From sequence record NC_111505.1: 64,000 bases of DNA, one strand, 5' to 3'. This document shows positions 5,481 through 38,535 of this stretch, in pieces. The position numbers were made by a program, and so were the translations under genes. Below the pieces are notes generated by a model. The model made no database searches. It had not been told where the DNA came from and saw only the letters and a list, made by a program, of their open reading frames with translations. Every line of letters starts with the position of its first letter. The first letter of the stretch is position 1. The stretch is from a phage.

Positions 5481-5756
5481 CAATAGTTCAGGTAGGTCGT
5501 TAAGCTACCCCGCACCATTACGTGCATAGCCATACGTTTTCACGTAGGATCGGACCATCTCATATTCCTATGATAAGCAACCACAGGAATCCTCCCATTT
5601 CGACCGCACTTGCTGGTCTACTTCCTTTCGGAATGGCCTCTGAGCGTTCGCTCTTTTGAGCGCTTCGTTGCGGATTACCTTGCCATAAGGTTTAGGCTTC
5701 CCGCAGTTAAAGAGGTTATTCGACATAGATTACTCTATGAAGCCACAATGTTATTT
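5481..5756 (-). ncRNA. candidate group I self-splicing intron (276 nt, no ORF) in the DNA polymerase gene
   Basis: exon 1 ends in U (CAU His); in-frame UAA three codons into the intron; guide-like UGUGG can pair with CCAU|A giving a G.U at the splice site; UGCGGGAA (P-like) can pair with AAUCCGCA (Q-like); hairpins with GUAA and GAAA loops; last intron nt is G; splicing rebuilds YYH|DEYQLQV. Confidence 0.6.
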
Positions 5757-8700
5757 ATGGTAATAAATAATACGACGAACACCTTCATCGTACCACCCAC
5801 GCTTCACCATTTGGTGGTGCATGAGTATCCCAACTAAGTCACACAACGATGCACCACCATTTTGTTGGTATGCATTAAGTAAAGAGTGTTTAGATCGAGT
5901 CCAGATGGCATGACCATCAAAAGAGTAGATAAACTTCTTACCTGTTGCTTCCCAGAATTTCTCCAGATCCTCTTTGCGCCCCTTAAGACCAGGGTTGGCA
6001 TCCCAAAGCGCATCGATTACCTTTTGCCCTAACTCTGGGGAGATATCCAGCATGTCTGCAACTTTATCTTTTTGTGCCCCGTACATAACACCGTACGTGA
6101 CAGGCTTACCATCGTTACGGGAAATCTCCTTGCCTGCTACAGAAGAGTAAGCTTTGGCGTTATTACAGTTACCGCACACTGCCACTTTACCATTCCTTCT
6201 CACAATGATTGCTCCAGAAGGGACGGTAACGCAATAAACCAAAGAACCACTCACCTCGACAGACTCTTTAGATAGTGTCAGCAACCCTGCTCTCTGTTTG
6301 CTACCAATCGTGATTCTGTGCTGTACGGAACGACCTTTTTTGTGAATCGCCACCGTATTATTCCGTAAACCACACTGAGTAGCCAGCGCAGACACAACCT
6401 CTACAGATTTCTTCCTGCACTCGGCCTGAGAGTAGTAGGCAACTTTTCCACCTTCGGAAGATACCCACCCGTCCCAGTTAGATAAAGAAGCTATAAACAG
6501 GTTTTTAGATTCTTTATCAAGGTCCATCAGGTTGTAGGTGAAATCCTTATTGCTGTCCAAAAACTCAAATACCCAGGACGGAACGTGGAATTGGAACCTT
6601 CTCGCCAGTAAGCCCCCTTTTGTGGTTTTCCCGCCCTGCTCTACATAACTAAGGCTTAGAGCAGAAAAAGTATCTAAAAGCGTTGCAACTTTTCTGCCCT
6701 TCCCGACCTGAATCCTGCACACGATGCTGCCGTCCTTATTTGTATGCAAGTGTCCATCATCGTGAATAGCAATAAGCAAATTAATCTGGGCAGGAGATAA
6801 GGTTGTATTCCCATAAAACTCTGCCGCATGGATAAACCTTCTTCCTGAATTAGACCCTTTACCTGCTTTCAGGTCTTTTGCCAAATCTTCAAACAATTTA
6901 TTGCTTCTGTGATCCACGGTCAGCATCCTGTGTTGATCTGTAACCATAAAATCCACACCGCTGTTGTGGAAATGATACATATCCCCACAATAACCACGCT
7001 TAACGTAATTTAATGGTGTAACAAGGTTCATCGACGAGGTGTTGTGATCGTACTGGAACACTTGTGTTCCCGGATCAAGATCTTCAAACCTCACCCACCC
7101 TTTCTCCGTGAGAATTTGTGTATCTCCTGAATAACAGTGTGCATCGCCGTTACTTACAACATCATAATACAAGCCGTTGTCGAACTCAAAGGCACCCCAA
7201 GCCCCGATAAGCTGCTCTAAGTTGGACCCGTCAATACCGATCTCAAAGTATCCTGGAGGAACGCCCCACAGACTACGCATCTCTTTACCCATAACCACTT
7301 TAGGAGATGGTTTAGGCATGTTTGCACAAATACTGTGTTTCTGTCTGGAAGTGTTTGTCAATCCAGAACTTTTAGCAGGAAGCTTGTGGTCAATCTTCAG
7401 ACGTGGATGATTAAGAAGACCAGTATCAACCTTATCCTCCTTGATTGGATCAAGTACCGATCTACGGTTTCGCAAGGATAACCACAAGACGATATCTTTA
7501 GCCATCTCTCCGTTCAACTTTTCAAGATTCGGACATAGGTGTCCAAACGTATCTTTCAGTTGCGGAGAAGTAATAAGCGCTCTGGCTTTTCTACGTATCT
7601 TCCCAAACACTTCCTTTTTAATCCTTTCTGAGTTAGGGAAGCTTCGGAACTTGTGCACGGTTGTCTGAAACTTAGCATCAGTTTTGTTCCAGAAGTTGAT
7701 AATTAGGTCACAATACTCTGACTCTAAAAGCTCGTCCATATATGCATATACTCGTGCATCAACATCAGCATCAGGCAGAGCTTTCTTCTTGCTGTCCTTG
7801 GTTACATCTTTAGTTCTCCACATTGTTGGGAGCCAACCAGCGCTGATCAAATATCGCTTAATATCGTCCTGGTTGCTGATCTTCATAGGTATCTTGCAGT
7901 CAGGCATCCGCTTCTGCTGCAGATCACTTATTGCCTGATCCATTAGTTCTTTAGGTAAAGGATGTGGTGTCGAGGTACCTTTAATATACCCCCTTAAGAA
8001 ATCAGCCATCTTATCGGGGTCTTTGCAGCCCATCTCTTCACACCATTTTATCCCCATTTTGCTGACATCTCCTGTGGAGGTAAAGGCTCGCTTAGGTGGG
8101 GCTTTGAATTCTAAAGCACTCATGTCCACAGGATAGCCAAGCTTGTCTTTTAACCATTTCCAACCGTTATTAGAGATTGTCCCATCTTGGTTAAACGGCT
8201 TTTCAGGGAACTTAGGCCGCTGAGACATTGATAGCTCTTTTAGAGGAAGTTGTGGTTCAACACGATCAGCGATCTCTTTCATCCACGCATCGCAGCGGTC
8301 ACGTAAAGCAATAGCCCCATCTATGTCGAAATACACACCCTGTCGAGCCTGCAGCTCCATCAGGAAATGCTGCAGCATGCCTCGGCGTAATGCATTCTTC
8401 CAGGTGATCTTCTTGAAGCCTTTCGGCTTCTCTTTGGCAGGATCGTACATAAAGTTCTGCATGTCAGATTTGCCGTAGAATACACCTTTTGATTCTGCTA
8501 CCAACTCCTTCCAGAGCAACTCCTGGATGATAACGTCCTCGAACACACGATCCACATACTTCCACAGCGGAAGCTCACGCCAGTCATCGATTTGAACTTT
8601 CTGGTTACCAAGGGCATAGCCCCATGCCATAAGGCCATGAGGCCCAACAGGTTGCATTTTCTTGGTAACTGGATTGAATACTGCGTCCGGACAACCTTTT

Positions 8701-9149
8701 GGCAAAGGGCGGTCAGGCCACAAGATTCGACTCATCGCCAACGTATCAAATAGATTAACTTGGTGGTCGTTGATAGTCCCCATGCATTTAGGATCACGGA
8801 ACATATCAAAATGAACACCGGATAATCTTTCCATCAGCATAAAGTCATAGCTGTAGCAGTTATGACAGTTCAAAGCCGTAGGTGACCAGTCTGAATTGCC
8901 TGTAAGCCAGCCTTCCAACTCTGAAAAATCTGCTATGCGAGCCTCAAAATCTTTATAAAGAGTTTTCTTTGCCAGAATAAAGTTCTTAGCCTTTTCTACA
9001 TCCTCTTCAGAGTAGTGTGTGCGGTCATTTAGAGGAAGGAACAGCATAAAACGGTTCTTATTCAGCTCTTTAAACAAACCGCAGTGATAATAAAGATCTG
9101 GATCTTCCAAAAGCCCGGAGGCCTCCAAGTCGAACGACCACATGCTCAT
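5757..9149 (-). CDS. DNA polymerase, family A (T7-like), exon 1 with embedded intein
   Basis: N-terminal exonuclease motif SFDLEASGL...HCG (T7 gp5-like); motif A IDGSNLEQLIGA; motif B RNDGKPVTYGVMYG; AAGGAG 8 nt upstream of ATG 9149; ORF stops 2 codons after the His of motif C. Confidence 0.85.
6168..7136 (-). mobile_element. intein (323 aa) with LAGLIDADG-type homing endonuclease domain, inside DNA polymerase
   Basis: inserted after GDAH between motifs A and B; block A CYSGDTQIL; block B TDQH; LAGLIDADG-like LLIAIHDDGH and FIASLSNWDGW; ends ...VAVCGN followed by Cys+1 (penultimate Gly, not His); flanking extein aligns with T7 NGDIHT. Confidence 0.75.
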
Positions 9150-16265: not shown

Positions 16266-18248
16266 TTATTTGATGTTATTCTTTGTATCGATCAGTTCAC
16301 GGTATTCAATCATAGCAGGGGTGTCCCAATATTTCAAGCCTACATGCTTTAAAAGTGGATATTTCTTTTCCAATCTCGCAATATAGGCCTTCCCGCACTT
16401 AACTCGGTTGGCGATTAAGACTTTGGCACGATGATTCAGCTCACCGTACTTCCACGTGGTGCTACCTTCCCACTTGTGGAAATGTGGCCGATAATTTCCA
16501 AAATCCTGCATGGGTATAATTTTACCTAACTGTCTGTACAGGCTGTCATATGAAGTTTCATTTGCTGCGCGAGTCAGTAAGAATTTCCAAGCATCCTCTT
16601 TCAACAAATGTTCCACATTCTTCTCTGTAACATATTGGCAATCAGGATCAGTCCAAAGCAGACGAGATTCCGACACCAGGTACAGATCTTCCCCTTCAGG
16701 AATCTGGAGTGCCGCACGCACACGGTCATAATCTTGCTGGTAGATGTTACTCATCTGCCCTAGCCAACAACTTCCGCGTTGGATATCCCCCTCATACGGT
16801 ATGCAGTGCTTAATCTTCCTGAACTCTGCCTTAGTAATACGCTCACGCCGGAAGTAACCATCCTTCTCAAGTTTTTTAACCCAATAACCGGGCTCATAAC
16901 GAGTTTTTGTTTCACCTTTCTTCACAGGTCGGCGAGGAAGCTCTGATAACAATTTGACCGTATCTGCAAAGAACGGATGGTGTGCCACTTCTTTAAACTC
17001 TTTTACCAGATCCGTGTTCCGGCAATAGAAAACGTTGCGTCCGGTGATCTCGCTTAAGTAGTTACACTTATTTCGGTTATATTTACCGTCTCCGTCGTTA
17101 AATACTAGATAGACTCCTCGTAAGAATTCTACCTTTCCGTAACAAGCGTATCCTATGCGGCTTTTATTTAAGCCGCCTGCGAAGATCTCACAGTCCCCTA
17201 AATTCCCTAGTCCTGTTTCTTCCCACCGGTCATACATAAAATTCTTACCGAAGATGTGCCCGAACACTCCACTGTTCTTCATCATCTCGCGTGCTTCTGA
17301 GGATGTTTTTGCTGTCTCCAGTTCCGCAACAACTTCTGCTCCACGAAGACGGATACCTTCTTTGACAAAAGCTTCCAAACGCTCTTGGAATCCACCATCA
17401 TCGTGACCTTCTATGGTCCATTCACGTCCTGGGTTAATATTGCAGTCTCCGATAGGGATCTCTACACAAATTGCAGGATAATCTGTTAGTGTTTCCAGGA
17501 ACTTAGAACGGTAAGGTTGGTGACCCATTACCACACGACTCTCGTCAGAGCTGGTATAGCCCTTCAGGATGGTCATCTTCCAACCATCTTTTTCATAATA
17601 ATACTGCGCCTCTACTTTGTCTCCCTCCAGCATCTTGCTCGTCATCGGATCGGTGACAGTGAACGGAAATTTTGCATAGCGTAGACATGATGCAATAGCG
17701 GTGCGATATTTCAGAACATGCTCTTTCTTAACATGAAACTGAACTTTTACTCCATTGTGCTCTTCAGTCTTCCGCTCACGGATCTTGGTGACATTTGGGA
17801 TACCCTGGTCCAAGAACAATAGGTATGTGCTTTCCACACCATTGTGCACACTGATTACATCGAAAGTGTCCACCATGCTGAACGGGGCCTTTGAACCAAC
17901 ACCTTTATTGCCTACCAGATCGTTGCTGTTGCGCTTGGTTGACTCGCCGAGGTTCATGAAAGTGTTGCGGACCATCTCTTCTGACATACCGAGGCCAACG
18001 TCCTGCACAAAGAAGTATGGTTCAAGATCTGTAGGGGAGTGAATGATGATCGGAACATCACCACGTCCAGACTCAACATGAGAGTCCACAGCATTGAAGA
18101 TTGGTTCACGGCAGCTTGCCAGCACCTTATCTTCATAAATCCCTTTAATGATTAACCCAAAAGTTTCTTTGTTCAGAGAAATTGATCCCCTTGTTACCTC
18201 CAAATTCCCAGTTAGCACTGCTTTAGTTTCATTACTGTTTACAATCAT
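16266..18248 (-). CDS. GHKL-superfamily ATPase domain protein (MORC/Hsp90-like N-terminus) with uncharacterised C-terminal region
   Basis: N-box EPIFNAVDS; G1 box VQDVGLGM; G2 box GNKGVGSKAPF, in canonical order; about 450 aa of C-terminal sequence unassigned. Confidence 0.6.
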   Translation of the reverse strand: MIVNSNETKAVLTGNLEVTRGSISLNKETFGLIIKGIYEDKVLASCREPIFNAVDSHVESGRGDVPIIIHSPTDLEPYFFVQDVGLGMSEEMVRNTFMNLGESTKRNSNDLVGNKGVGSKAPFSMVDTFDVISVHNGVESTYLLFLDQGIPNVTKIRERKTEEHNGVKVQFHVKKEHVLKYRTAIASCLRYAKFPFTVTDPMTSKMLEGDKVEAQYYYEKDGWKMTILKGYTSSDESRVVMGHQPYRSKFLETLTDYPAICVEIPIGDCNINPGREWTIEGHDDGGFQERLEAFVKEGIRLRGAEVVAELETAKTSSEAREMMKNSGVFGHIFGKNFMYDRWEETGLGNLGDCEIFAGGLNKSRIGYACYGKVEFLRGVYLVFNDGDGKYNRNKCNYLSEITGRNVFYCRNTDLVKEFKEVAHHPFFADTVKLLSELPRRPVKKGETKTRYEPGYWVKKLEKDGYFRRERITKAEFRKIKHCIPYEGDIQRGSCWLGQMSNIYQQDYDRVRAALQIPEGEDLYLVSESRLLWTDPDCQYVTEKNVEHLLKEDAWKFLLTRAANETSYDSLYRQLGKIIPMQDFGNYRPHFHKWEGSTTWKYGELNHRAKVLIANRVKCGKAYIARLEKKYPLLKHVGLKYWDTPAMIEYRELIDTKNNIK

Positions 18249-21065: not shown

Positions 21066-21323
21066 TCAGTCTACCTCTTCTTCTCGTTGCAGTTCAAGAT
21101 ACCCATAGGTCTGGATATCTTCAAGGGTGTGGAACTCCCCATCTGCAGCTAAGGCACGGACAACCTGGCATAGAGTTTTATAAGGTACTTTCTCCAAACC
21201 CAGATTCAGCGCAGGAAAAACCTTATCTAAGTCAACAAAATATACAAACTGTAGCTCACCAGTTTCAAAAGGCGTATCTTCGATAAACATCTTCTCGGCA
21301 TTAGTCAAGATCTGCACTTTCAT
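21066..21323 (-). CDS. hypothetical protein
   Basis: 85-aa ORF. Confidence 0.45.
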   Translation of the reverse strand: MKVQILTNAEKMFIEDTPFETGELQFVYFVDLDKVFPALNLGLEKVPYKTLCQVVRALAADGEFHTLEDIQTYGYLELQREEEVD

Positions 21324-21553
21324 TCTTCTACCCCCTCTTCTTTTTCTTCAGCATTAGTTTCAGTGCTACCCCACTCTGGAGTTTCCACCTCGACAGTAAA
21401 CTCACGCACTACACGGTAATTGCCCATGAAGCGCTCCACTTCTTCAAGGCTTATGGAGAGGCCATTGGCAACCAAGTCTGCAGCACCCTTCTCTACCAGG
21501 TAGTCCAGATTGGCTTCCAAGGCTTCAGGCTCAAACCCTGTCAATGCAATCAT
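21320..21553 (-). CDS. hypothetical acidic protein
   Basis: start set at internal ATG (MIALTG...) overlapping the stop of the upstream small ORF; track start is TTG. Confidence 0.4.
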   Translation of the reverse strand: MIALTGFEPEALEANLDYLVEKGAADLVANGLSISLEEVERFMGNYRVVREFTVEVETPEWGSTETNAEEKEEGVEE

Positions 21554-21678
21554 ATAACCCTCCCCTTCATCAAGGAGGGCAATACAGCCCAACTGATTTT
21601 CTTTAAAAAGCAGTGACCATCACTATTGATTGGTTGCTCATTGCAGTAAATAGCTGCACGATAAGTAACTTTAGACAT
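21550..21678 (-). CDS. candidate small protein (42 aa), not in ORF track
   Basis: ATG preceded by AAGGAGG with 7-nt spacer; stop overlaps the next start (ATGA); MSKVTYRAAIYCNEQPINSDGHC... Confidence 0.35.
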   Translation of the reverse strand: MSKVTYRAAIYCNEQPINSDGHCFLKKISWAVLPSLMKGRVI

Positions 21679-26281: not shown

Positions 26282-26731
26282 GTGTTGAGCAAACGTGAAT
26301 GCGACAGCATTAGCCTAAATTCTTATAAGAAACAATGGTTTGGGGTAGAAGTTTGCCGACTACGGCTCGGCTCCTACCTGAACTTCGTTTATTACGAGAG
26401 TGACAGTCGTATCGTTTCTTATGAAGTGTTTTACACTAAGAACACCTTCGAGCTGCGACGTAAGGTGGATGGCGGGAGAGCTACCACTCAGAATAACTGG
26501 GAAACTATTCTGCCTCCAGATGTTATAGGAAGCCCCCTGAATGTATCTGAAGATGAAAATCTTATGGTTCATGCTATGATGGGACTTGACAGCTTAGAGC
26601 TGGCGATCTATGATATGTCCATCGAAGCGGTTAAGCTGGACTACATCGAAAACACCTTAGAGGAAGGTATCAAGAAGTTTCTCGGTGAGAAATTGAAAGC
26701 CCACTTTCATAAGGAGCTATACCTGTTATGA
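26282..26731 (+). CDS. hypothetical protein
   Basis: 149-aa ORF. Confidence 0.45.
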   Translation: MLSKRECDSISLNSYKKQWFGVEVCRLRLGSYLNFVYYESDSRIVSYEVFYTKNTFELRRKVDGGRATTQNNWETILPPDVIGSPLNVSEDENLMVHAMMGLDSLELAIYDMSIEAVKLDYIENTLEEGIKKFLGEKLKAHFHKELYLL

Positions 26732-28567: not shown

Positions 28568-28948
28568 ATGTGCAAGTGTAAATCCTATAATTGGAAAGTT
28601 AAAGGTGCCAAGCATCCAAATGTTATCGTTGATGTGCCTAAAAAGCTCCGTGACTGCAAAAAACGTGTGTGCCTTGATAAGTGCATGGCTAAGCCTATCA
28701 TGAGTCTATGGGCGGCAGGATTGAAAACTATAAACTGCTGCTGTGGTCATAACAAAGATGCTCCAAGCATCATTATCCCAGAGGATGCAGACCCTAAAGC
28801 TTATGCCAAAATACTGACCCGCTACCCCAGCACCTTTCTGATCGGAAAATGGTGTCACGATGAACTTCAATGGTGGATAGCATACGGCAGCATAGGTACT
28901 GCTGTTGGCTTTCCAGCTTTGTCAGAGCGCTACGTCAAAGTGTCATAA
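28568..28948 (+). CDS. hypothetical Cys-rich protein
   Basis: 126 aa; several Cys clusters (CKCK, INCCCGH) suggest metal binding. Confidence 0.45.
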   Translation: MCKCKSYNWKVKGAKHPNVIVDVPKKLRDCKKRVCLDKCMAKPIMSLWAAGLKTINCCCGHNKDAPSIIIPEDADPKAYAKILTRYPSTFLIGKWCHDELQWWIAYGSIGTAVGFPALSERYVKVS

Positions 28949-29732: not shown

Positions 29733-29760
29733 GAAAGGGGCCGTTTGGCCCCTTTTTTAT
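29733..29760. terminator. bidirectional rho-independent terminator between convergent blocks
   Basis: AGGGGCC-GTTT-GGCCCCT flanked by A-run upstream and T-run downstream. Confidence 0.65.
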
Positions 29761-29771
29761 TTACCCCCTTG

Positions 29772-32700
29772 TTAACGAGAAAAGGTTGCGTAGGCTTCTA
29801 GACGATACTGCTGGTCACCAGGGAACATAACACCTATAGAGGCTGTCCCTAGAATCCTGCCTTCCTTTCCAGACTCCATTCTGAACCCTACCCATCCTGA
29901 ACTCCTTGCAGCATCGATGTTGTCTCTATACCCGAAAGTGGCAAGATCGTCAACACCAGCCCCAAACAGCAACTGAAGCTGACTTCTCGGAAGCCCTATA
30001 ATTTCAGGAATATACGCACCAAAGTACACCATCTGCCCTACCTTAGGACCGCTGCCGTACTCCATCGGCTTGCTTGTAGAGAAAGTCTTCATACCAGAAG
30101 TCCCTGCCGGATTAGGATATGCCCCGTTTGTTGCTGTACCTATCCACATTCTCCACTGTGGTGCCATCTGTTTGACAGTAAAAGATGTTGAAGACGTTTT
30201 GCGCCCTGCATCATCTGTAACTACAAACTTTATAGTGACATTCCCAGTAGCTTTAAATGTTACCAGCCCTGTGGTAGCATCCACTGTTGCAATGTTGGTA
30301 TTACTACTTTCCCAAGTCTTTCTGATTCCTGGCACATTGGAAGGGGTAATAGAAGGTTCCTGCATCTGCAGTTTACCACCTACAATCCCTATCCCGTTTC
30401 CTGGATTATACAACGCACCAACCTCGTCTACAATGTTACCTGCCTTGAGGCTGTACTTTTTAGAGAAGTTGTAAGTGCCGTTATATGTGTGTGTCCCTGA
30501 GAAGGTTACATCTGCTTTTCCGTAAGAGATGCAAACCAAAGCATACTTCCTGTCAGGCAACGGTGCCCCAGTTTCTGGGTGAGTTTTACCCACCTGAAAC
30601 ACACTCGGGTCAGTGGAGTCTTGGCTATCACTAACTGAGTTTGGGCCACCCATCAGTTGTGACAAGCAATTCCTTACCCATGTCCAGTTATTATCGCTGG
30701 AGAAGTCCACAGTTAAATCAAACACAACCCACTCATTTGGCTTCCACACAGGTGTTGCAATGGACTTGCCTACACCGCCTCCTTGGAGTGTTGCCGACTG
30801 TTCAGTGATCAGGGCCGCGTAGGCCAGAGTTCCTAAACTCAGAGTTTGGCTTGCTGTCCTCACTACCTTAGAATCAGCATCTGTGAAGTTGTTGATGATC
30901 TGGAATGTGCCATAAGTGTTTTTACAGGTAATTCTGGCGTTCAGCGTGTCAATCTTCCTCACATCTGCCATAGCAGTGTTAGACACAGAGAAGTCAGAAG
31001 CTTTAGCTGAGTTTGCCGCAACAGCAGGATCAACGTTAAGAGTTGCGTTGAACTGACAAGCTGGGGTAACCAGCAGCTTGTTATCACCTATTTGCTTCCA
31101 TGAAACACTTTGAACAGGGAGATTCCATTTAATACCTGAGAAAACTTTAGCAACCCTTGGCCCCAGAGCTCCAGTCCTGGTGTCTTTACAGCACATGGAC
31201 ATGGTGATCGTTGACGGAGTGGCCTGACCAAACAATTGCTGTGCTTTTGCAGAGGACATGGTGTAGAAATTGTCCTTAACAAACTCATCAGCCGCCAATG
31301 ATCCGTCAGATCTCCACCATTGCACCTGGTACCCTGTCTTATCCCAGCCACCGACCTGCTTCAGGTCCTCCCAGGAGATTTCCAGATCCCCAGTGGTAGG
31401 GTTGATTGCAGCAGTTCCTGGTGTTCCAGAGGACCATAATGGGATATCGAACCATGCTGGTTTAACAGATTGTACTGCGTTCGGTCCTATTGCAGCAGCA
31501 AGTTGCTGACCCATCAACACACGAGAATCTTTTACCAAGCCCCATTCAATCATGGACCCAGAGTAGCCTTCTTTCTTATAGGCCGAAGATCCGTTCAAAT
31601 GGATAAGCCTGCTGCAGTCGAAACCATACGCCCCGCCACCGTTAGGATCTGCAAAGTTAGTTATGATTCTATCCCTTATATTTTTCCATGCCCTGCCTCC
31701 AATCTCGTAGTCATGGTCATAACATCTCTGCAGCGTTGTCCAGCAAATGATTGCCATTCTTCTGCCACCAGTAAACCCGAAAGCGCCGTCATTCAACTCT
31801 TTCCACAGATAGCAGTTAGTTGCCCACATAGCTCTGTGGATATTGAACCAGTTTATAGACTTAGCAGAATTGTCCCACTGAGTTCCCGGTAATTCAGGCC
31901 ACACTGCATTAACCAACATGTCTTCTGTTCCTGCATCAACTAAGAACCCTCTCACCTTTTTACCCATACCTGCCCTGTCTTTAGCAATCCAATTGCCAAA
32001 CAGTCTCAGTTTTGGACCATAAACGACATCCTCTGGGTGCTCAAAAGAAACATACTTTAAGTAGATTGTTGGGTCACCGTAGGTGCCATCACAAACACTT
32101 TTGTGCATGTTTTCGCCAAGATCTAGACGAAGCCCTGTCACCACTTTAGACGTGTCGGTGAATTTGTCTGTTAAATCAAATTCATACCACCACCATCCAC
32201 CACCAAGCATAAATTTCTTGCATCGAGCATTGTCTGTATCAGATATTCTCTTATCCCCTGCAAAAGGTGAATCAGCAAACTGATAATGCAGAGCAGTCTC
32301 GAATAAATGTGTTGAGGTTCCGTTTTCTGCAAGAACTTGCTTACCTATTAAGTCGCACTTAATGATCATCACAACACGTTTGTACCCGTTTGTTACTGGA
32401 ACTTGCATAGACATGGATGTCCCATCCATGTTTGATCTCAGCACGGTCATGACGATATAAGGGTCAACGGCATTGCCCAGAGTTTCAGGACCAGGGATTA
32501 TCTTGTACTTCTTAACCTGCCCCATAAACCTGTCACTGGCGTAAGTTGCAGCCTCGAAGCAAGATCCTCCATTAGGTAGTTCGCCAGGACCCCAGAAAAA
32601 TGCGCCATAACAGTTATAAAACCACTTGTTAGGATCGTATTTGTTCTTGAAGGTCTGAACCTCGTTAGCCTGTTTTGTCAAGAAAACCTGAGTATCTGTG

Positions 32701-34442
32701 AAGATTGCAGGATTCACTCTTGCCTGTCGATCAGCATATCCAGGTTGGTTAAACCACTGATTGCAAGAATAGTCCCGCATATAGTCATAATCAGAGTATT
32801 TATTGTTTGCATCCTCGTTCCAACACATATTAAGGTTGGTGCCGCCCATGCACACAATATATTCTTCAACGTATTTATCACTTCGGGTGGGAATACCTAC
32901 GAACCATCTATTAACAGGTTCGTTCCAAGCAGTACGCTCATCCTTAACGCAGATTGCAATCCAGTCATGTGTCCCTGTTTTCTTGCACACATCGCGCTTC
33001 ATACCGTAGTAGAATTCTTTAGTATTTGGCTCAGGTGCACTTATCAGGTAACTCCACGCCTGGTCTGCATATGTTCCGTTGGTGCGAGGGTCATGATCAA
33101 AGGCATACATGATGATTCTTTCTCCACCAAGATGTTCACCAAGGGTGACTTTGATGTTCACATCCCCGTAACCGTTGCGAACAACATCCATATTATCAAT
33201 AGAAATGCCTCTAGGAGTGTAGGCAATTTTCAGTGAGTTATCCTCACTAGTGCCACCAAGGGTGATCCCAATATTGTTTGTCGTCCCGTCAGCATATCTT
33301 ACTGTAGCTTCCCAGCGTATTCCGAAATATCCTACGTCATGGCTGACAATTTTTAATGTACGAGCACCAGAGTTAGGTTTTCCAGGATCAGGCCAAGGGT
33401 TTGGGTGTTCGTGAACCGTCAACGATGTCCCGTTTTGTTCGTTGACCTGCAACATTTTACCACCCCTTCCGTTTGGGTTGAACTCCCATAGGGCCTGTGT
33501 CTGCACCAAGTTATCATAGGTATTCCGTCGCTGACTATAAATCTCTTGGGTAACATCATAAGTTACTGATCCAGCATCCATTCTATGGAGTCTGACCATA
33601 TACGATGTATCCCCTTCTACTGCAGGCTGGGCCGCATTTAGTCCAAAGTATACAGTGTCATTAACATGGAACTGTTTGTTTCTACCGGCAGTATGCCATT
33701 TACCATCAGACGGATACGCCGGAACAATAGTGTTCCAGTTCAAAGTCCTTGTTGTGTGGGTCCTGCCTGTGCCATGTTTGTCATGATAGGTTATTTTTAC
33801 AGAGTACAGACCACGTCTGTTAACATTCCTGTTATACTGGGTAACAATAACTTCGTTGGCCCCACCGTGGTTCCAGTTAGTAGAGAATTGGTAATTCGCA
33901 TCTGTAACAACCGTGCCTGCAGCATTTACCAGTTCAATCTTGTCAATAATGAACGTAGCACCCTCTGGCTGAGGCTTTAATTTCATCTTGACCGTATCAC
34001 CAATGTAAATATTGCTAACGCTGCTAACACCGTTAACGTCGAAAATATCATCAACACCCCAACTGTCTACTGGGACATTTTTATACCAATTCTCAGGGAC
34101 CTCCGTGAACCCTTGGCTATTAAGTCTGCCGCCAAACAGGTTATTAGATCCTGCAAAACTTCCCCTCGGGATGCCTGACCACCAAAGTTTGCCATTAACA
34201 ACAGTAAAGGTTCCTAAAAAAACCTTCTCTGTGAATGCCTTGGAAATAAACACTTTCTGTCCAGCTAACTGGGAGGCGTTGCTCAACGTATTTGGCTGTG
34301 GCAAGAGCTTGATAGTGGATAAAATTGGCCCTAGGGCTATTGTTTGCAGATTGTGCGCCAATATCATTGCAAAGGTTGCGAGAGAATCCACGGTACTGCT
34401 TAGTACCATTGTTGAAGAAAATGCCACTTGTGCCGTACCCAC
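29772..34442 (-). CDS. giant tail-associated protein (1556 aa) with Ig-like (Big_2-type) domain; true 5' end uncertain
   Basis: longest ORF from track; C-terminal NIATVDATTGLVTFKATGNVTIKFVVTDDAG resembles bacterial Ig-like domain; first about 75 codons overlap the upstream ORF in another frame and look low-complexity. Confidence 0.55.
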   Translation of the reverse strand: MGTAQVAFSSTMVLSSTVDSLATFAMILAHNLQTIALGPILSTIKLLPQPNTLSNASQLAGQKVFISKAFTEKVFLGTFTVVNGKLWWSGIPRGSFAGSNNLFGGRLNSQGFTEVPENWYKNVPVDSWGVDDIFDVNGVSSVSNIYIGDTVKMKLKPQPEGATFIIDKIELVNAAGTVVTDANYQFSTNWNHGGANEVIVTQYNRNVNRRGLYSVKITYHDKHGTGRTHTTRTLNWNTIVPAYPSDGKWHTAGRNKQFHVNDTVYFGLNAAQPAVEGDTSYMVRLHRMDAGSVTYDVTQEIYSQRRNTYDNLVQTQALWEFNPNGRGGKMLQVNEQNGTSLTVHEHPNPWPDPGKPNSGARTLKIVSHDVGYFGIRWEATVRYADGTTNNIGITLGGTSEDNSLKIAYTPRGISIDNMDVVRNGYGDVNIKVTLGEHLGGERIIMYAFDHDPRTNGTYADQAWSYLISAPEPNTKEFYYGMKRDVCKKTGTHDWIAICVKDERTAWNEPVNRWFVGIPTRSDKYVEEYIVCMGGTNLNMCWNEDANNKYSDYDYMRDYSCNQWFNQPGYADRQARVNPAIFTDTQVFLTKQANEVQTFKNKYDPNKWFYNCYGAFFWGPGELPNGGSCFEAATYASDRFMGQVKKYKIIPGPETLGNAVDPYIVMTVLRSNMDGTSMSMQVPVTNGYKRVVMIIKCDLIGKQVLAENGTSTHLFETALHYQFADSPFAGDKRISDTDNARCKKFMLGGGWWWYEFDLTDKFTDTSKVVTGLRLDLGENMHKSVCDGTYGDPTIYLKYVSFEHPEDVVYGPKLRLFGNWIAKDRAGMGKKVRGFLVDAGTEDMLVNAVWPELPGTQWDNSAKSINWFNIHRAMWATNCYLWKELNDGAFGFTGGRRMAIICWTTLQRCYDHDYEIGGRAWKNIRDRIITNFADPNGGGAYGFDCSRLIHLNGSSAYKKEGYSGSMIEWGLVKDSRVLMGQQLAAAIGPNAVQSVKPAWFDIPLWSSGTPGTAAINPTTGDLEISWEDLKQVGGWDKTGYQVQWWRSDGSLAADEFVKDNFYTMSSAKAQQLFGQATPSTITMSMCCKDTRTGALGPRVAKVFSGIKWNLPVQSVSWKQIGDNKLLVTPACQFNATLNVDPAVAANSAKASDFSVSNTAMADVRKIDTLNARITCKNTYGTFQIINNFTDADSKVVRTASQTLSLGTLAYAALITEQSATLQGGGVGKSIATPVWKPNEWVVFDLTVDFSSDNNWTWVRNCLSQLMGGPNSVSDSQDSTDPSVFQVGKTHPETGAPLPDRKYALVCISYGKADVTFSGTHTYNGTYNFSKKYSLKAGNIVDEVGALYNPGNGIGIVGGKLQMQEPSITPSNVPGIRKTWESSNTNIATVDATTGLVTFKATGNVTIKFVVTDDAGRKTSSTSFTVKQMAPQWRMWIGTATNGAYPNPAGTSGMKTFSTSKPMEYGSGPKVGQMVYFGAYIPEIIGLPRSQLQLLFGAGVDDLATFGYRDNIDAARSSGWVGFRMESGKEGRILGTASIGVMFPGDQQYRLEAYATFSR

Positions 34443-35409
34443 GAGCCATTATTACCTCATGGGTGTAGGTGATATTCAAGGCACGCCATGTATCATCTCC
34501 CCAAACATCTTGCCCGTAGAATACGTTAACAAGTTGCTGGTCATCAGGTCTGTGCATTCTTTGTGTTACAACCACTGCCCCGTTCGGACCGCACATGAAC
34601 CCTTTCCACTCCTCATCTGTAGGAATGCCCCTCAAATCGTCACGGGTAATCTGAGCGGGGGGCCAAACGAGAGTGTTTCTACTATTGTTTCTCAGAAAGT
34701 CATATCCAGCAATCCAGAAACCTCTAGGACCACCGAAAATAACAGAGTTATCATGCACCTCACAGTTAATGCTTGGGTTTTTCCAAGGACCTGTTTCAGG
34801 ATTTTCCGATGTTTCACCAATCTTTACAGGGGTTGCATGCTGGTTTTTATCCACATGCAAAGACCCGTAGGTGTTGTTACCAGATCCGTACAAGTGTAAA
34901 ATGCCAGTGCCTTCTGCCTCTGCCATAACCCAGACGGTGTTGTTAATACCACCCATCACCTCAACAAGGCGCTCTGGGTGGGTGTCAAGGTGCAATCCTT
35001 TAACGATTTGTTCAGGAAGAGGTGTCCACTCCCTTACACAAACATCATTACCGCCTGCAGCATCAGACCCAATAAGCCCTGCAGTACAGCCGATGTAGAA
35101 AAACTGATTATCAAAAGTTCGGATCACAAACGCACGGTCTGCTCTCCACACATGATCAACGTTCCAGGCAGCCTCATTAGGGTAGTTTATCGTGTCAAGA
35201 TCCCCAGTCCTACACTCCCCGAACCTGTTGTACCCTGTGATATTAAGCTGACCATTGTCAAAAAGTATAGCTAAGCTATTTACATAGGCTACTGTAGTGC
35301 TTGTACCGTCACTGTTGTCTATTGGGTATGACAGAACAGCAAGTTCCTTAACTCCACCCCTCTTATCGAGGAAATGACGACCAAGTTTTAGCAAAGGGAT
35401 TGGAAGCAT
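34195..35409 (-). CDS. beta-propeller-like protein (RCC1-like repeats); possibly the N-terminal part of the downstream giant protein
   Basis: repeated aromatic/Gly motifs (YGSGNNTYGSLHVD, FYIGCTAGLIGSD); C-terminus overlaps the giant ORF by 248 nt. Confidence 0.5.
   Translation of the reverse strand: MLPIPLLKLGRHFLDKRGGVKELAVLSYPIDNSDGTSTTVAYVNSLAILFDNGQLNITGYNRFGECRTGDLDTINYPNEAAWNVDHVWRADRAFVIRTFDNQFFYIGCTAGLIGSDAAGGNDVCVREWTPLPEQIVKGLHLDTHPERLVEVMGGINNTVWVMAEAEGTGILHLYGSGNNTYGSLHVDKNQHATPVKIGETSENPETGPWKNPSINCEVHDNSVIFGGPRGFWIAGYDFLRNNSRNTLVWPPAQITRDDLRGIPTDEEWKGFMCGPNGAVVVTQRMHRPDDQQLVNVFYGQDVWGDDTWRALNITYTHEVIMARGYGTSGIFFNNGTKQYRGFSRNLCNDIGAQSANNSPRANFIHYQALATAKYVEQRLPVSWTESVYFQGIHREGFFRNLYCC
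34216..34222 (-). other. T7 homopolymer at the frame junction between ORF 34195..35409 and ORF 29772..34442
   Basis: minus strand GAAGG-TTTTTTT-AGGAAC about 20 nt before the upstream stop; removing one T joins ...IHREGF to LGTFTVVNGKLWWSG... as one ORF of about 1880 aa. Confidence 0.5.
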
Positions 35410-35430
35410 TGTGTTCTCCAGATAAGAAAA

Positions 35431-35449
35431 CCGCCCCGTCAGGAGCGGT
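35431..35449 (-). terminator. hairpin with U-run (attenuator or terminator)
   Basis: minus strand CCGCUCC-UGAC-GGGGCGG + UUUUCUUAUCU after the fibre gene. Confidence 0.35.
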
Positions 35450-35457
35450 CAGATATA

Positions 35458-37488: not shown

Positions 37489-38535
37489 TTAAGCATAAGA
37501 TATGGTGATCCATTGACCGTTTACAAATTTTTGAATAGCTCCAGTCCAATAGTCTCCCTGATACGGGTGTTTATATGCGTAATTGCCGGAGCACATTACA
37601 TGCCCGGGGTATACTCTTGACTCTCTGTAGGTGGTTCTGAAACGGTTTGCTATCCTTACATCTTCAACACCCCTACTAGGCATAGGGATAGTAAGGTTAC
37701 CACTACTGTCTGCGCTACTACCATTTACCCTGCGGACCACGTTTCTTCCACCAACTGTTGCATATTGACCTCTGGCGGTTTTATCGTTACAATCTACTCT
37801 TCCACCTATTTGAGCGCTGCCGCAGGATTGTTGCCCATTAACAGTGGATCTGGGTATCGTTACCGCATTAGCATTTGCAGAGGAGCTTTTTGCATCATTG
37901 CATTCAAGATTTCCTTGGATAGCCAGTCTTGCACGGTTGGCAGTTATAGCATTGAGCTTCATAGCCGAAAACACAGGCTGCCCACCAGAAGGTTGAAATC
38001 TCCAACGGAAACCGTCTATTTGGTGAGAGGGATCATCAAGGTCTGTGCCGTCAGCACCACCGATGTTGTCCATAATCCAGAAATCCATCATCGTCTTGTC
38101 TGGAGTTATGGTGGTGTATATCGCCGCACTATCTGTTGACGCGGATGCAAACTCGATTCTTTGAAGACCTAAAGTTTGAGTCTGGATCATTGTGTCTCCA
38201 GCCTTGTCAACATAAAGGTCATCCATTTCTTCAGGCGAGTATACATTAAGAACTTGACGTGCAGCAGCTTTGTCTGGAACGTCTGCCAGATTATTAGTGA
38301 CCCTTAAGAATCTATTATCCCATCCTGGGACAACATCTTCTGTTAAATGCTTTAACCACGCAGAGAGCATATTAAGTTCAAAGTTAACAACTTCACATGC
38401 CACTCTTTGTGTCATATCCCAACCTTTCAATCTCTCTTCTTTTTTTGGTTGGGACTTATTCAATTCTCCCGTATTTTCAAGCACAACATCCTGATTGGCC
38501 CAAATATCAAGAGGGATAACTGGTTTAGTCATCAC
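37489..38535 (-). CDS. tail fibre protein, paralog B
   Basis: 348 aa; shares N-terminal P-L-x-I-W-A and C-terminal K-x-VNGQWIT-x-x-YA with 39548..40588. Confidence 0.6.
   Translation of the reverse strand: MMTKPVIPLDIWANQDVVLENTGELNKSQPKKEERLKGWDMTQRVACEVVNFELNMLSAWLKHLTEDVVPGWDNRFLRVTNNLADVPDKAAARQVLNVYSPEEMDDLYVDKAGDTMIQTQTLGLQRIEFASASTDSAAIYTTITPDKTMMDFWIMDNIGGADGTDLDDPSHQIDGFRWRFQPSGGQPVFSAMKLNAITANRARLAIQGNLECNDAKSSSANANAVTIPRSTVNGQQSCGSAQIGGRVDCNDKTARGQYATVGGRNVVRRVNGSSADSSGNLTIPMPSRGVEDVRIANRFRTTYRESRVYPGHVMCSGNYAYKHPYQGDYWTGAIQKFVNGQWITISYA

Follow-up and report, generated by a model that had tools for sequence, protein, structure and literature searches.

A single extra T at a homopolymer splits a gp27-type lateral tail fibre gene in an FV3-like phage sequence

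We have analyzed two overlapping open reading frames (ORFs) in a stretch of 64,000 nucleotides of phage DNA (the window) and they are, by homology and gene order, one gene that is already known, the large lateral tail fibre of the rV5 gp27 type (35409..29772 on the minus strand, 1878 aa). A surplus T in a run of seven (T7) breaks its frame, and the case is an ordinary homopolymer frameshift in a gene described before. The window itself is part of an FV3-like Vequintavirus, an rV5-like myovirus of E. coli. We consider it close to certain that the indel is not programmed, be it an artefact or a recent mutation. The extra T is probably a miscount of the homopolymer length in the assembly or consensus, with a base-calling cause that we infer. 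The case is of importance mainly for annotation, where the two ORFs are best recorded as one lateral tail fibre gene with a flagged frameshift, and neither as two genes nor as a recoding site.

The upstream ORF (ORF A, 35409..34195, minus strand) starts with an ATG and codes for 404 aa, and the downstream one (ORF B, 34442..29772, minus strand) appears in the mechanical ORF list with 1556 aa. A previous inspection of the DNA, the sequence-only reading, had described two same-strand ORFs that overlap by 248 nt at a +1 junction, and this is what we found: the shared stretch is 34195-34442, and the frame of ORF B (frame b) is +1 with respect to that of ORF A (frame a). The same reading was also right that frame b lacks any ATG, GTG or TTG from the stop of ORF A up to codon 153. 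The last such codon before this gap is a GTG at 34253 (codon 64), which still lies upstream of the ORF A stop, and the next is codon 153 itself, the ATG at 33986. The frame changes at the T7 run (34222..34216 of the minus strand, A7 at 34216-34222 on the plus strand), which has one T more than the relatives. The run had been placed about 20 nt before the upstream stop; the actual spacing from the run to the TAA (34197..34195) is 18 nt. On the coding strand the junction reads CAC AGA GAA GGT TTT TTT AGG AAC CTT TAC TGT TGT TAA. Only one other homopolymer of at least 7 bases was found in the 64 kb, at 38440-38446.

When one T is removed an ORF of 5637 nt and 1878 aa is obtained, with no internal stop, very near to the roughly 1880 aa that had been anticipated for the fused product. 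Across the junction the repaired protein reads ...HREGFLGTFTVVNGKLWW... and the junction peptide of the restored product includes EGFLGTFTVVNGK; the truncated product ends in EGFFR followed by NLYCC. Specifically, ORF A (34195..35409, minus strand) consists of 397 native codons, then seven codons out of frame (F R N L Y C C) before the TAA. The same gene is continued in frame b at 29772..34217 (minus strand), from the codon TTA at 34217..34215, and this part supplies residues 398-1878 of the repaired protein. Upstream of the run, the stretch of frame b at 34223..34442 (minus strand) is open by chance and is non-coding in that frame, as the relatives read only frame a there. Thus, the apparent overlap of the two ORFs is found because frame b happens to be open along this stretch. 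The whole unit (29772..35409, minus strand; 5637 nt and 1878 aa after dropping one T) is bordered by two terminator-like hairpins on the same strand, one at 35429..35450, between the upstream 581-aa tail fibre gene and the gene start, and the other at 29734..29755, immediately after the gene stop. The genes beyond this second hairpin are on the opposite strand, and with the terminator in between the early stop would have no polar effect on downstream genes.

The identity of the gene could be established by several lines of comparison. The region was 99.4% identical to Escherichia phage FV3 over 1.2 kb; for the other Vequintavirus (rV5-like) genomes, more than 110 of them, the identity was between 82 and 97%. 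In the window the genes are ordered as in FV3, Bas59, SYGMH1 and a Logan contig (L030), and the gene is the last large one of the tail fibre locus, placed between the 581-aa fibre gene and small genes in the opposite orientation. This is the position described for rV5 gp27, the last large lateral tail fibre gene of its locus in the BASEL paper (PMC8594841). In the relatives the syntenic slot is occupied by a single CDS of 5628-5637 nt (FV3, Bas59, rV5, naam, SYGMH1 and L030). In FV3 it is FV3_00027 (YP_007006198), with 1877 aa and annotated as "Ig-like domain-containing protein", and bas59_0040 is annotated as "lateral tail fiber protein with intimin domain". Actually, rV5 ORF27, naam_53, the WM CDS and SYGMH1_10 all measure 5637 nt, which is exactly the length of the repaired ORF. 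Look-ups of identical proteins gave nothing for ORF A, for the 581-aa neighbour or for the 346-aa neighbour, and the 194-aa chaperone pointed to two Logan contigs, of which L030 is the one that extends to the tail fibre gene. This Logan contig belongs to a different phage (92% identity in the tail fibre gene), has the gene intact with 1878 aa and carries TTTCTT at the site.

The protein comparison gave the same picture. ORF A corresponds to positions 1-399 of phrog_15684 (profile length 1878, E 4.5e-278) and the part after its stop to positions 405-1878; the junction-spanning protein P0001 (557 aa) matched positions 1-557. This collinearity bears out the proposal that a single gene has been split by a one-base change in the length of the T run. 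Membership in the phrog_15684 family is indicated by end-to-end collinearity, by synteny and by the Ig-like domain at the C-terminus, where a Pfam Big_2 domain was detected above the cut-off (E 1.2e-7). An uninterrupted ORF of some 1875-1878 codons, characteristic of the gp27 family, is lacking in the sequence as written and appears once one T is dropped; the broken ORF is the anomaly under study and no argument against homology to this family. The gene hence shares with the gp27-type fibres FV3_00027, SYGMH1_10 and bas59_0040 the position in the locus, the size of 1878 aa after removal of the T and the C-terminal domain, and differs from them in that its frame is broken by the extra T at 34216-34222. 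A search of PDB sequences gave weak matches to intimin chains for residues 1696-1735 and nothing else. The upstream ORF had been called a beta-propeller, and this label is weakly supported: residues about 40-200 gave two matches, one to an RCC1-like Pfam domain that falls short of the curated cut-off (E 1.8e-4) and the other to phrog_4219, "regulator of chromosome condensation" (E 9.5e-9). The AlphaFold2 model of P0001 across the junction, obtained from the single sequence, had a pLDDT of 38.7 and was unusable.

We compared the site with its counterparts in related phages, a check that had been proposed together with the original description. Aligned with FV3 and EduardKellenberger, the gene has a single T in excess at the run. 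Comparing the whole window with FV3 and with SYGMH1 gave the same 1-nt insertion, which also appeared against WM, rV5, naam and an IMG/VR contig. With a query of 121 nt that spans the run, 118 phage records were retrieved, and in 59 of the 60 matches listed the span of the record was one base shorter than that of the query. The remaining listed match, to typing phage 14, was ungapped and ended inside the run. Every annotated match had a single CDS at the site. A 41-mer centred on the T7, for which megablast seeding requires the exact T7 and its flanks, had no exact match among 50,697 phage records. With T6 in place of T7, the 41-mer was present in 9 phage records, all of them annotated as one protein, and two versions with TTTCTT were present in 10 and 27 records, so that at least 37 records have no homopolymer at this point. 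In the multiple alignment, FV3, WM and the IMG/VR contig read GGT TTT TTA GGA (T6), and EduardKellenberger, rV5, naam and typing phage 14 read GGT TTC TTA GGx; SYGMH1 also has TTTCTT. Both the T6 and the TTTCTT alleles encode the same peptide G-F-L-G in frame, and most lineages are without the homopolymer. A pattern scan of IMG/VR that allowed T6 to T8 found one contig, with T6, and no copy with T7. The same pattern matched 16 loci in JGI metagenomes, all without similarity to the gene and attributable to chance. A search of protein databases with ORF A recovered three fragments only, all of them in frame across the junction. Among the sequences examined, the split and the T7 are unique to the window.

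The allele of the window is a mosaic that combines an FV3-like N-terminal part with a SYGMH1-like middle part, and its codons were compared with one or the other. Codons 1-396 of ORF A had no amino acid changes with respect to FV3; codons 397-830 differed from FV3 by 7 synonymous and 2 amino acid-changing replacements, and codons 831-1600 differed from SYGMH1 by 4 synonymous and 1 amino acid-changing replacements. There were no further stops in the 1481 codons that follow the run in the repaired frame, and the codon comparison gave no sign of relaxed constraint downstream of the run. With the downstream frame undamaged and the differences mostly synonymous, the lesion is either not real or very recent.

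The reading that we favor is the following. A T6 run (GGT TTT TTA GGA, coding for G-F-L-G) is written here as T7, which shifts the frame and brings in the TAA 18 nt further on; an ORF finder then lists a 404-aa ORF and an overlapping one of 1556 aa. The extra T would be a homopolymer miscount in the assembly or consensus, and the phage would make a normal full-length fibre, with no particular event at this point of the gene. In order to see how singular the lesion is, we carried out a census of indels in the whole window against FV3 and SYGMH1, followed by a comparison at the level of ORFs. Three uncompensated 1-nt indels were unique to the window, and in the ORF-level comparison only two real genes were broken. 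The second broken gene is the homologue of FV3_00008 and SYGMH1_28, where an A6 has become A5 at 21605-21609, so that the reading from the ATG at 21678 runs into an early stop. At this other site the span of the record was one base longer in all the 40 matches listed (of 116 records). The changes in the two broken genes are both window-unique, of one nucleotide, located at A/T runs of six and of opposite sign. Singleton changes of opposite sign in A/T runs that break conserved genes are the usual signature of homopolymer miscounting. An artefact is favored here because two independent singleton changes at A/T6 runs each break a gene that more than 100 relatives have intact. Against it, window-unique length differences stand out in only 2 of the 28 runs of at least 6 bases present in the window, which indicates that the assembly is not grossly error-prone, and real-looking loss-of-function alleles of the same tail fibre gene exist elsewhere.

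A less likely but serious alternative is that the T7 is real and derives from a recent replication slippage (T6 to T7) that became fixed in the phage stock; the sequence expected in this case is the same as that from a miscount. The change from T6 to T7 is of the commonest kind among spontaneous frameshift mutations. The product would be a stub of 404 aa (397 native residues plus FRNLYCC), and the distal 1481 residues of one lateral tail fibre would be lost; the remaining fibre sets, and likewise the short tail fibres, would be intact. One host-recognition specificity would be lost or narrowed, something tolerated or even favored on the propagation host. By analogy with other tail fibres, the stub would keep the proximal or attachment part and lack the distal one that binds the receptor. 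Several observations go in this direction. The gene is one of several lateral tail fibre genes, and redundancy is to be expected because the Vequintavirinae encode three co-expressed sets of lateral tail fibres (PMC8594841). The mutable T6 allele is carried by the FV3 clade, and the intact downstream frame suits a very recent event. Besides, the Logan contig SRR22133733_6753 (L012) has a nonsense change, TGG to TGA, at residue 558, and the O157 typing phage 14 (KP869112) has a CDS of 415 aa whose homology ends about 10 nt after the site, in a record that is a partial genome and where the junction could be an assembly join. Since the gene carries other loss-of-function alleles, a genuine truncation would plausibly be tolerated. 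Singleton homopolymer splits also occur in other deposited relatives, e.g. SYGMH1_13/_14. What weighs against a real T7 is that the allele is a singleton among the relatives examined (118 records), that the constraint downstream does not look relaxed, and that a homopolymer change also disrupts another conserved gene of the window, unrelated to this one; base-calling is a simpler account of the two lesions than two independent fixed frameshifts. If the T7 were real, the isolate would be a natural mutant without the distal part of one tail fibre and could serve to study the part that the gp27-type fibre plays in the broad host range of rV5-like phages. This would be a routine question of genetics, with no new mechanism involved.

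There is a slim chance that a real T7 acts as a leaky knock-down, in which most translation would stop after 404 aa and a few per cent of the product would be full-length fibre. The latter would be produced by an RNA polymerase that drops one U on the U7, or by a +1 shift at UUU-AGG. In experiments with E. coli RNA polymerase reporters, slippage was about 5% at T7, as insertion, and about 10% at T8, as deletion (PMC6260861). In addition, replication slippage between T6 and T7 would work as a heritable on/off toggle for one lateral tail fibre set in the FV3 clade, and we would be seeing a recoding or contingency site at its very beginning, not yet under selection.

The least credible possibility is that the T7 is a functional recoding site, at which a ribosomal +1 frameshift or the slippage of the RNA polymerase by one U would yield products of 404 and 1878 aa in a set ratio. 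An evolved recoding or slippage site is excluded because neither the T7 nor the two-ORF layout is conserved in the relatives compared (118 records), as a programmed site should be; most of them read TTTCTT and the fibre is encoded throughout as one ORF. Of the three alternatives offered by the sequence-only reading, a sequencing error and a recent pseudogenising indel hence survive, and slippage as a biological feature giving two products does not. It is true that a +1 shift, or the deletion of one U from the mRNA, restores exactly the conserved G-F-L-G-T, that the zero-frame stop follows 18 nt after the run, and that the proposed shift site UUU UUU AGG places AGG, a rare Arg codon, in the A site and has a Shine-Dalgarno-like AAGG just upstream. 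The length of the run is also the minimum from which E. coli RNA polymerase slips detectably, 7 T (PMC6260861). However, the AGG codon and the nearby TAA arise solely from the extra T, and no stimulatory RNA structure was found (the local fold had a non-significant z of -1.0).

Programmed transcriptional slippage typically takes place at runs of at least 9 A or T, usually longer than 7. The run here is shorter than that, and the long conserved A/T run (9 or more) that could be expected at the frame junction is absent, with 7 bases in the window and 6 or an interrupted run in the relatives. Neither could we find a hypermutable tract conserved across isolates, as phase variation would require: the sole sequence of a different length is that of this window, and no other length polymorphism was seen among the 118 relatives found. 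Independent expression of ORF B is not indicated either, as 89 codons pass without an in-frame start, promoters show no excess over shuffled sequences and no internal start signal was found. No tRNA genes were found within the 64-kb window. As it is not conserved in the relatives, the site appears to belong to no class of recoding or contingency locus.

The comparison with well known systems illustrates the same point. Programmed +1 sites are found in E. coli prfB (CUU UGA C, with an upstream Shine-Dalgarno-like element) and in yeast Ty1 (CUU AGG C, with the rare AGG). The junction in the window resembles them in having a slippery codon followed by a slow zero-frame AGG, an AAGG a few bases upstream and a long ORF in the +1 frame. 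It differs in that the motif was made by the insertion itself and has no conservation in relatives, and in that the re-pairing of tRNA-Phe on UUA would be imperfect. Among slippage and contingency loci are the A/T9 runs of Thermus dnaX, of IS elements and of Shigella mxiE, as well as the poly-G tracts in receptor-binding genes of Campylobacter phages. As in these loci, a homopolymer in a receptor-binding gene sets the frame by its length, although here the run has only 7 bases, most relatives have TTTCTT and no other length polymorphism is found. The closest likeness is to the singleton homopolymer splits of deposited phages, which may be errors of base-calling or mutations of the stock. In SYGMH1 the homologue of FV3_00022 is split at an A7 into SYGMH1_13 and SYGMH1_14, and the window keeps the corresponding ORF intact (126 aa, 28568-28948). 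As in the tail fibre gene, the change is of one base, in an A/T run of 6-7 and in one record, and it splits a gene that all the relatives have uninterrupted; nothing essential differs between the two cases, save that the gene affected in the window is large and conspicuous.

A second homopolymer frameshift unique to the window, besides that of the T-run (the T7 stretch in the rV5 gp27-type lateral tail fibre gene), was found at 21605-21609, a run of five A on the plus strand. It falls within a gene coded on the minus strand (21678..21320), the homologue of FV3_00008 and SYGMH1_28 (118 aa). Sequence comparison indicated that the run is one A longer in the related phages FV3 and SYGMH1, and the same was true of all 40 matches listed, of 116 related records. 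As it stands in the window, the reading frame that starts at the ATG at 21678 runs into an early stop, and a 90-aa ORF (21592..21320) is left as the remnant of the gene.

Singleton differences of one base were also detected in the reference genomes themselves. SYGMH1 has its own unique A7 at the position equivalent to the A6 run of the window at 28657-28662, and two short genes (SYGMH1_13 and SYGMH1_14; 16523-16904 of the SYGMH1 record) are annotated there, where both the window (28568..28948, plus strand) and FV3 have one 126-aa ORF. This split at a unique A7 shows that singleton homopolymer splits are common among the deposited genomes of the rV5-like group. The window ORF at 26282..26731 (plus strand) has 149 aa and is thereby as long as SYGMH1_20 ("holin", 450 nt), but FV3_00016 is annotated at 131 aa. 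The FV3 gene is shorter because a single T, which would correspond to position 26392 of the window, is missing in FV3 alone; it is probably the FV3 record, rather than the window, that contains an error or a mutation.

Disrupted copies of the tail-fibre gene are also on record for other phages. In the Logan contig SRR22133733_6753 (7660-7680) a TGA is found in place of the TGG coding for Trp558 in the window (33735-33737), and the gene is called in two pieces of 557 and 1272 aa. The contig, from another phage, provides an independent loss-of-function allele of the gene. O157 typing phage 14 (KP869112.1) has a homologue at 129963-131210, annotated with only 415 aa. Its homology to the tail-fibre gene ends about 10 nt beyond the site of the T-run, and the FV3_00021 homologue comes next. 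Some 6 kb are missing here, comprising the distal fibre and about five small genes. The gap could be a real deletion or, since the record is a partial genome, an assembly join.

The window allele itself (29772-35409) is a mosaic, with a breakpoint near 32800-32900. It is nearly the same as FV3 over codons 1-830, with 12 nucleotide differences, and nearly the same as SYGMH1 over codons 831-1600, where 5 nucleotides differ from SYGMH1 and 321 from FV3. A 3-nt insertion relative to FV3 is located at 32802-32804. The pattern is consistent with recombination inside the gene. Among the relatives, 15 or 16 records carry the name "Campylobacter phage" (MG0656xx), with C. jejuni as host, and are approximately 92% identical to the tail-fibre region of the window, which is that of an E. 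coli rV5-like phage; for Vequintavirus genomes this host label looks doubtful.

Finally, the DNA polymerase ORF (5751..9149, minus strand) codes for 1132 aa, compared with 809 aa in FV3 and SYGMH1, owing to an insert of about 970 nt (approximately 6140-7137) that keeps the reading frame and is absent from both. The insert has the N-terminal sequence CYSGDTQILTEKGW, with a weak match to Pfam Hint_2 (E 0.0013), and its last residues are ...VAVCGN, with C as the next residue. The insert is probably an intein whose middle part resembles an endonuclease.
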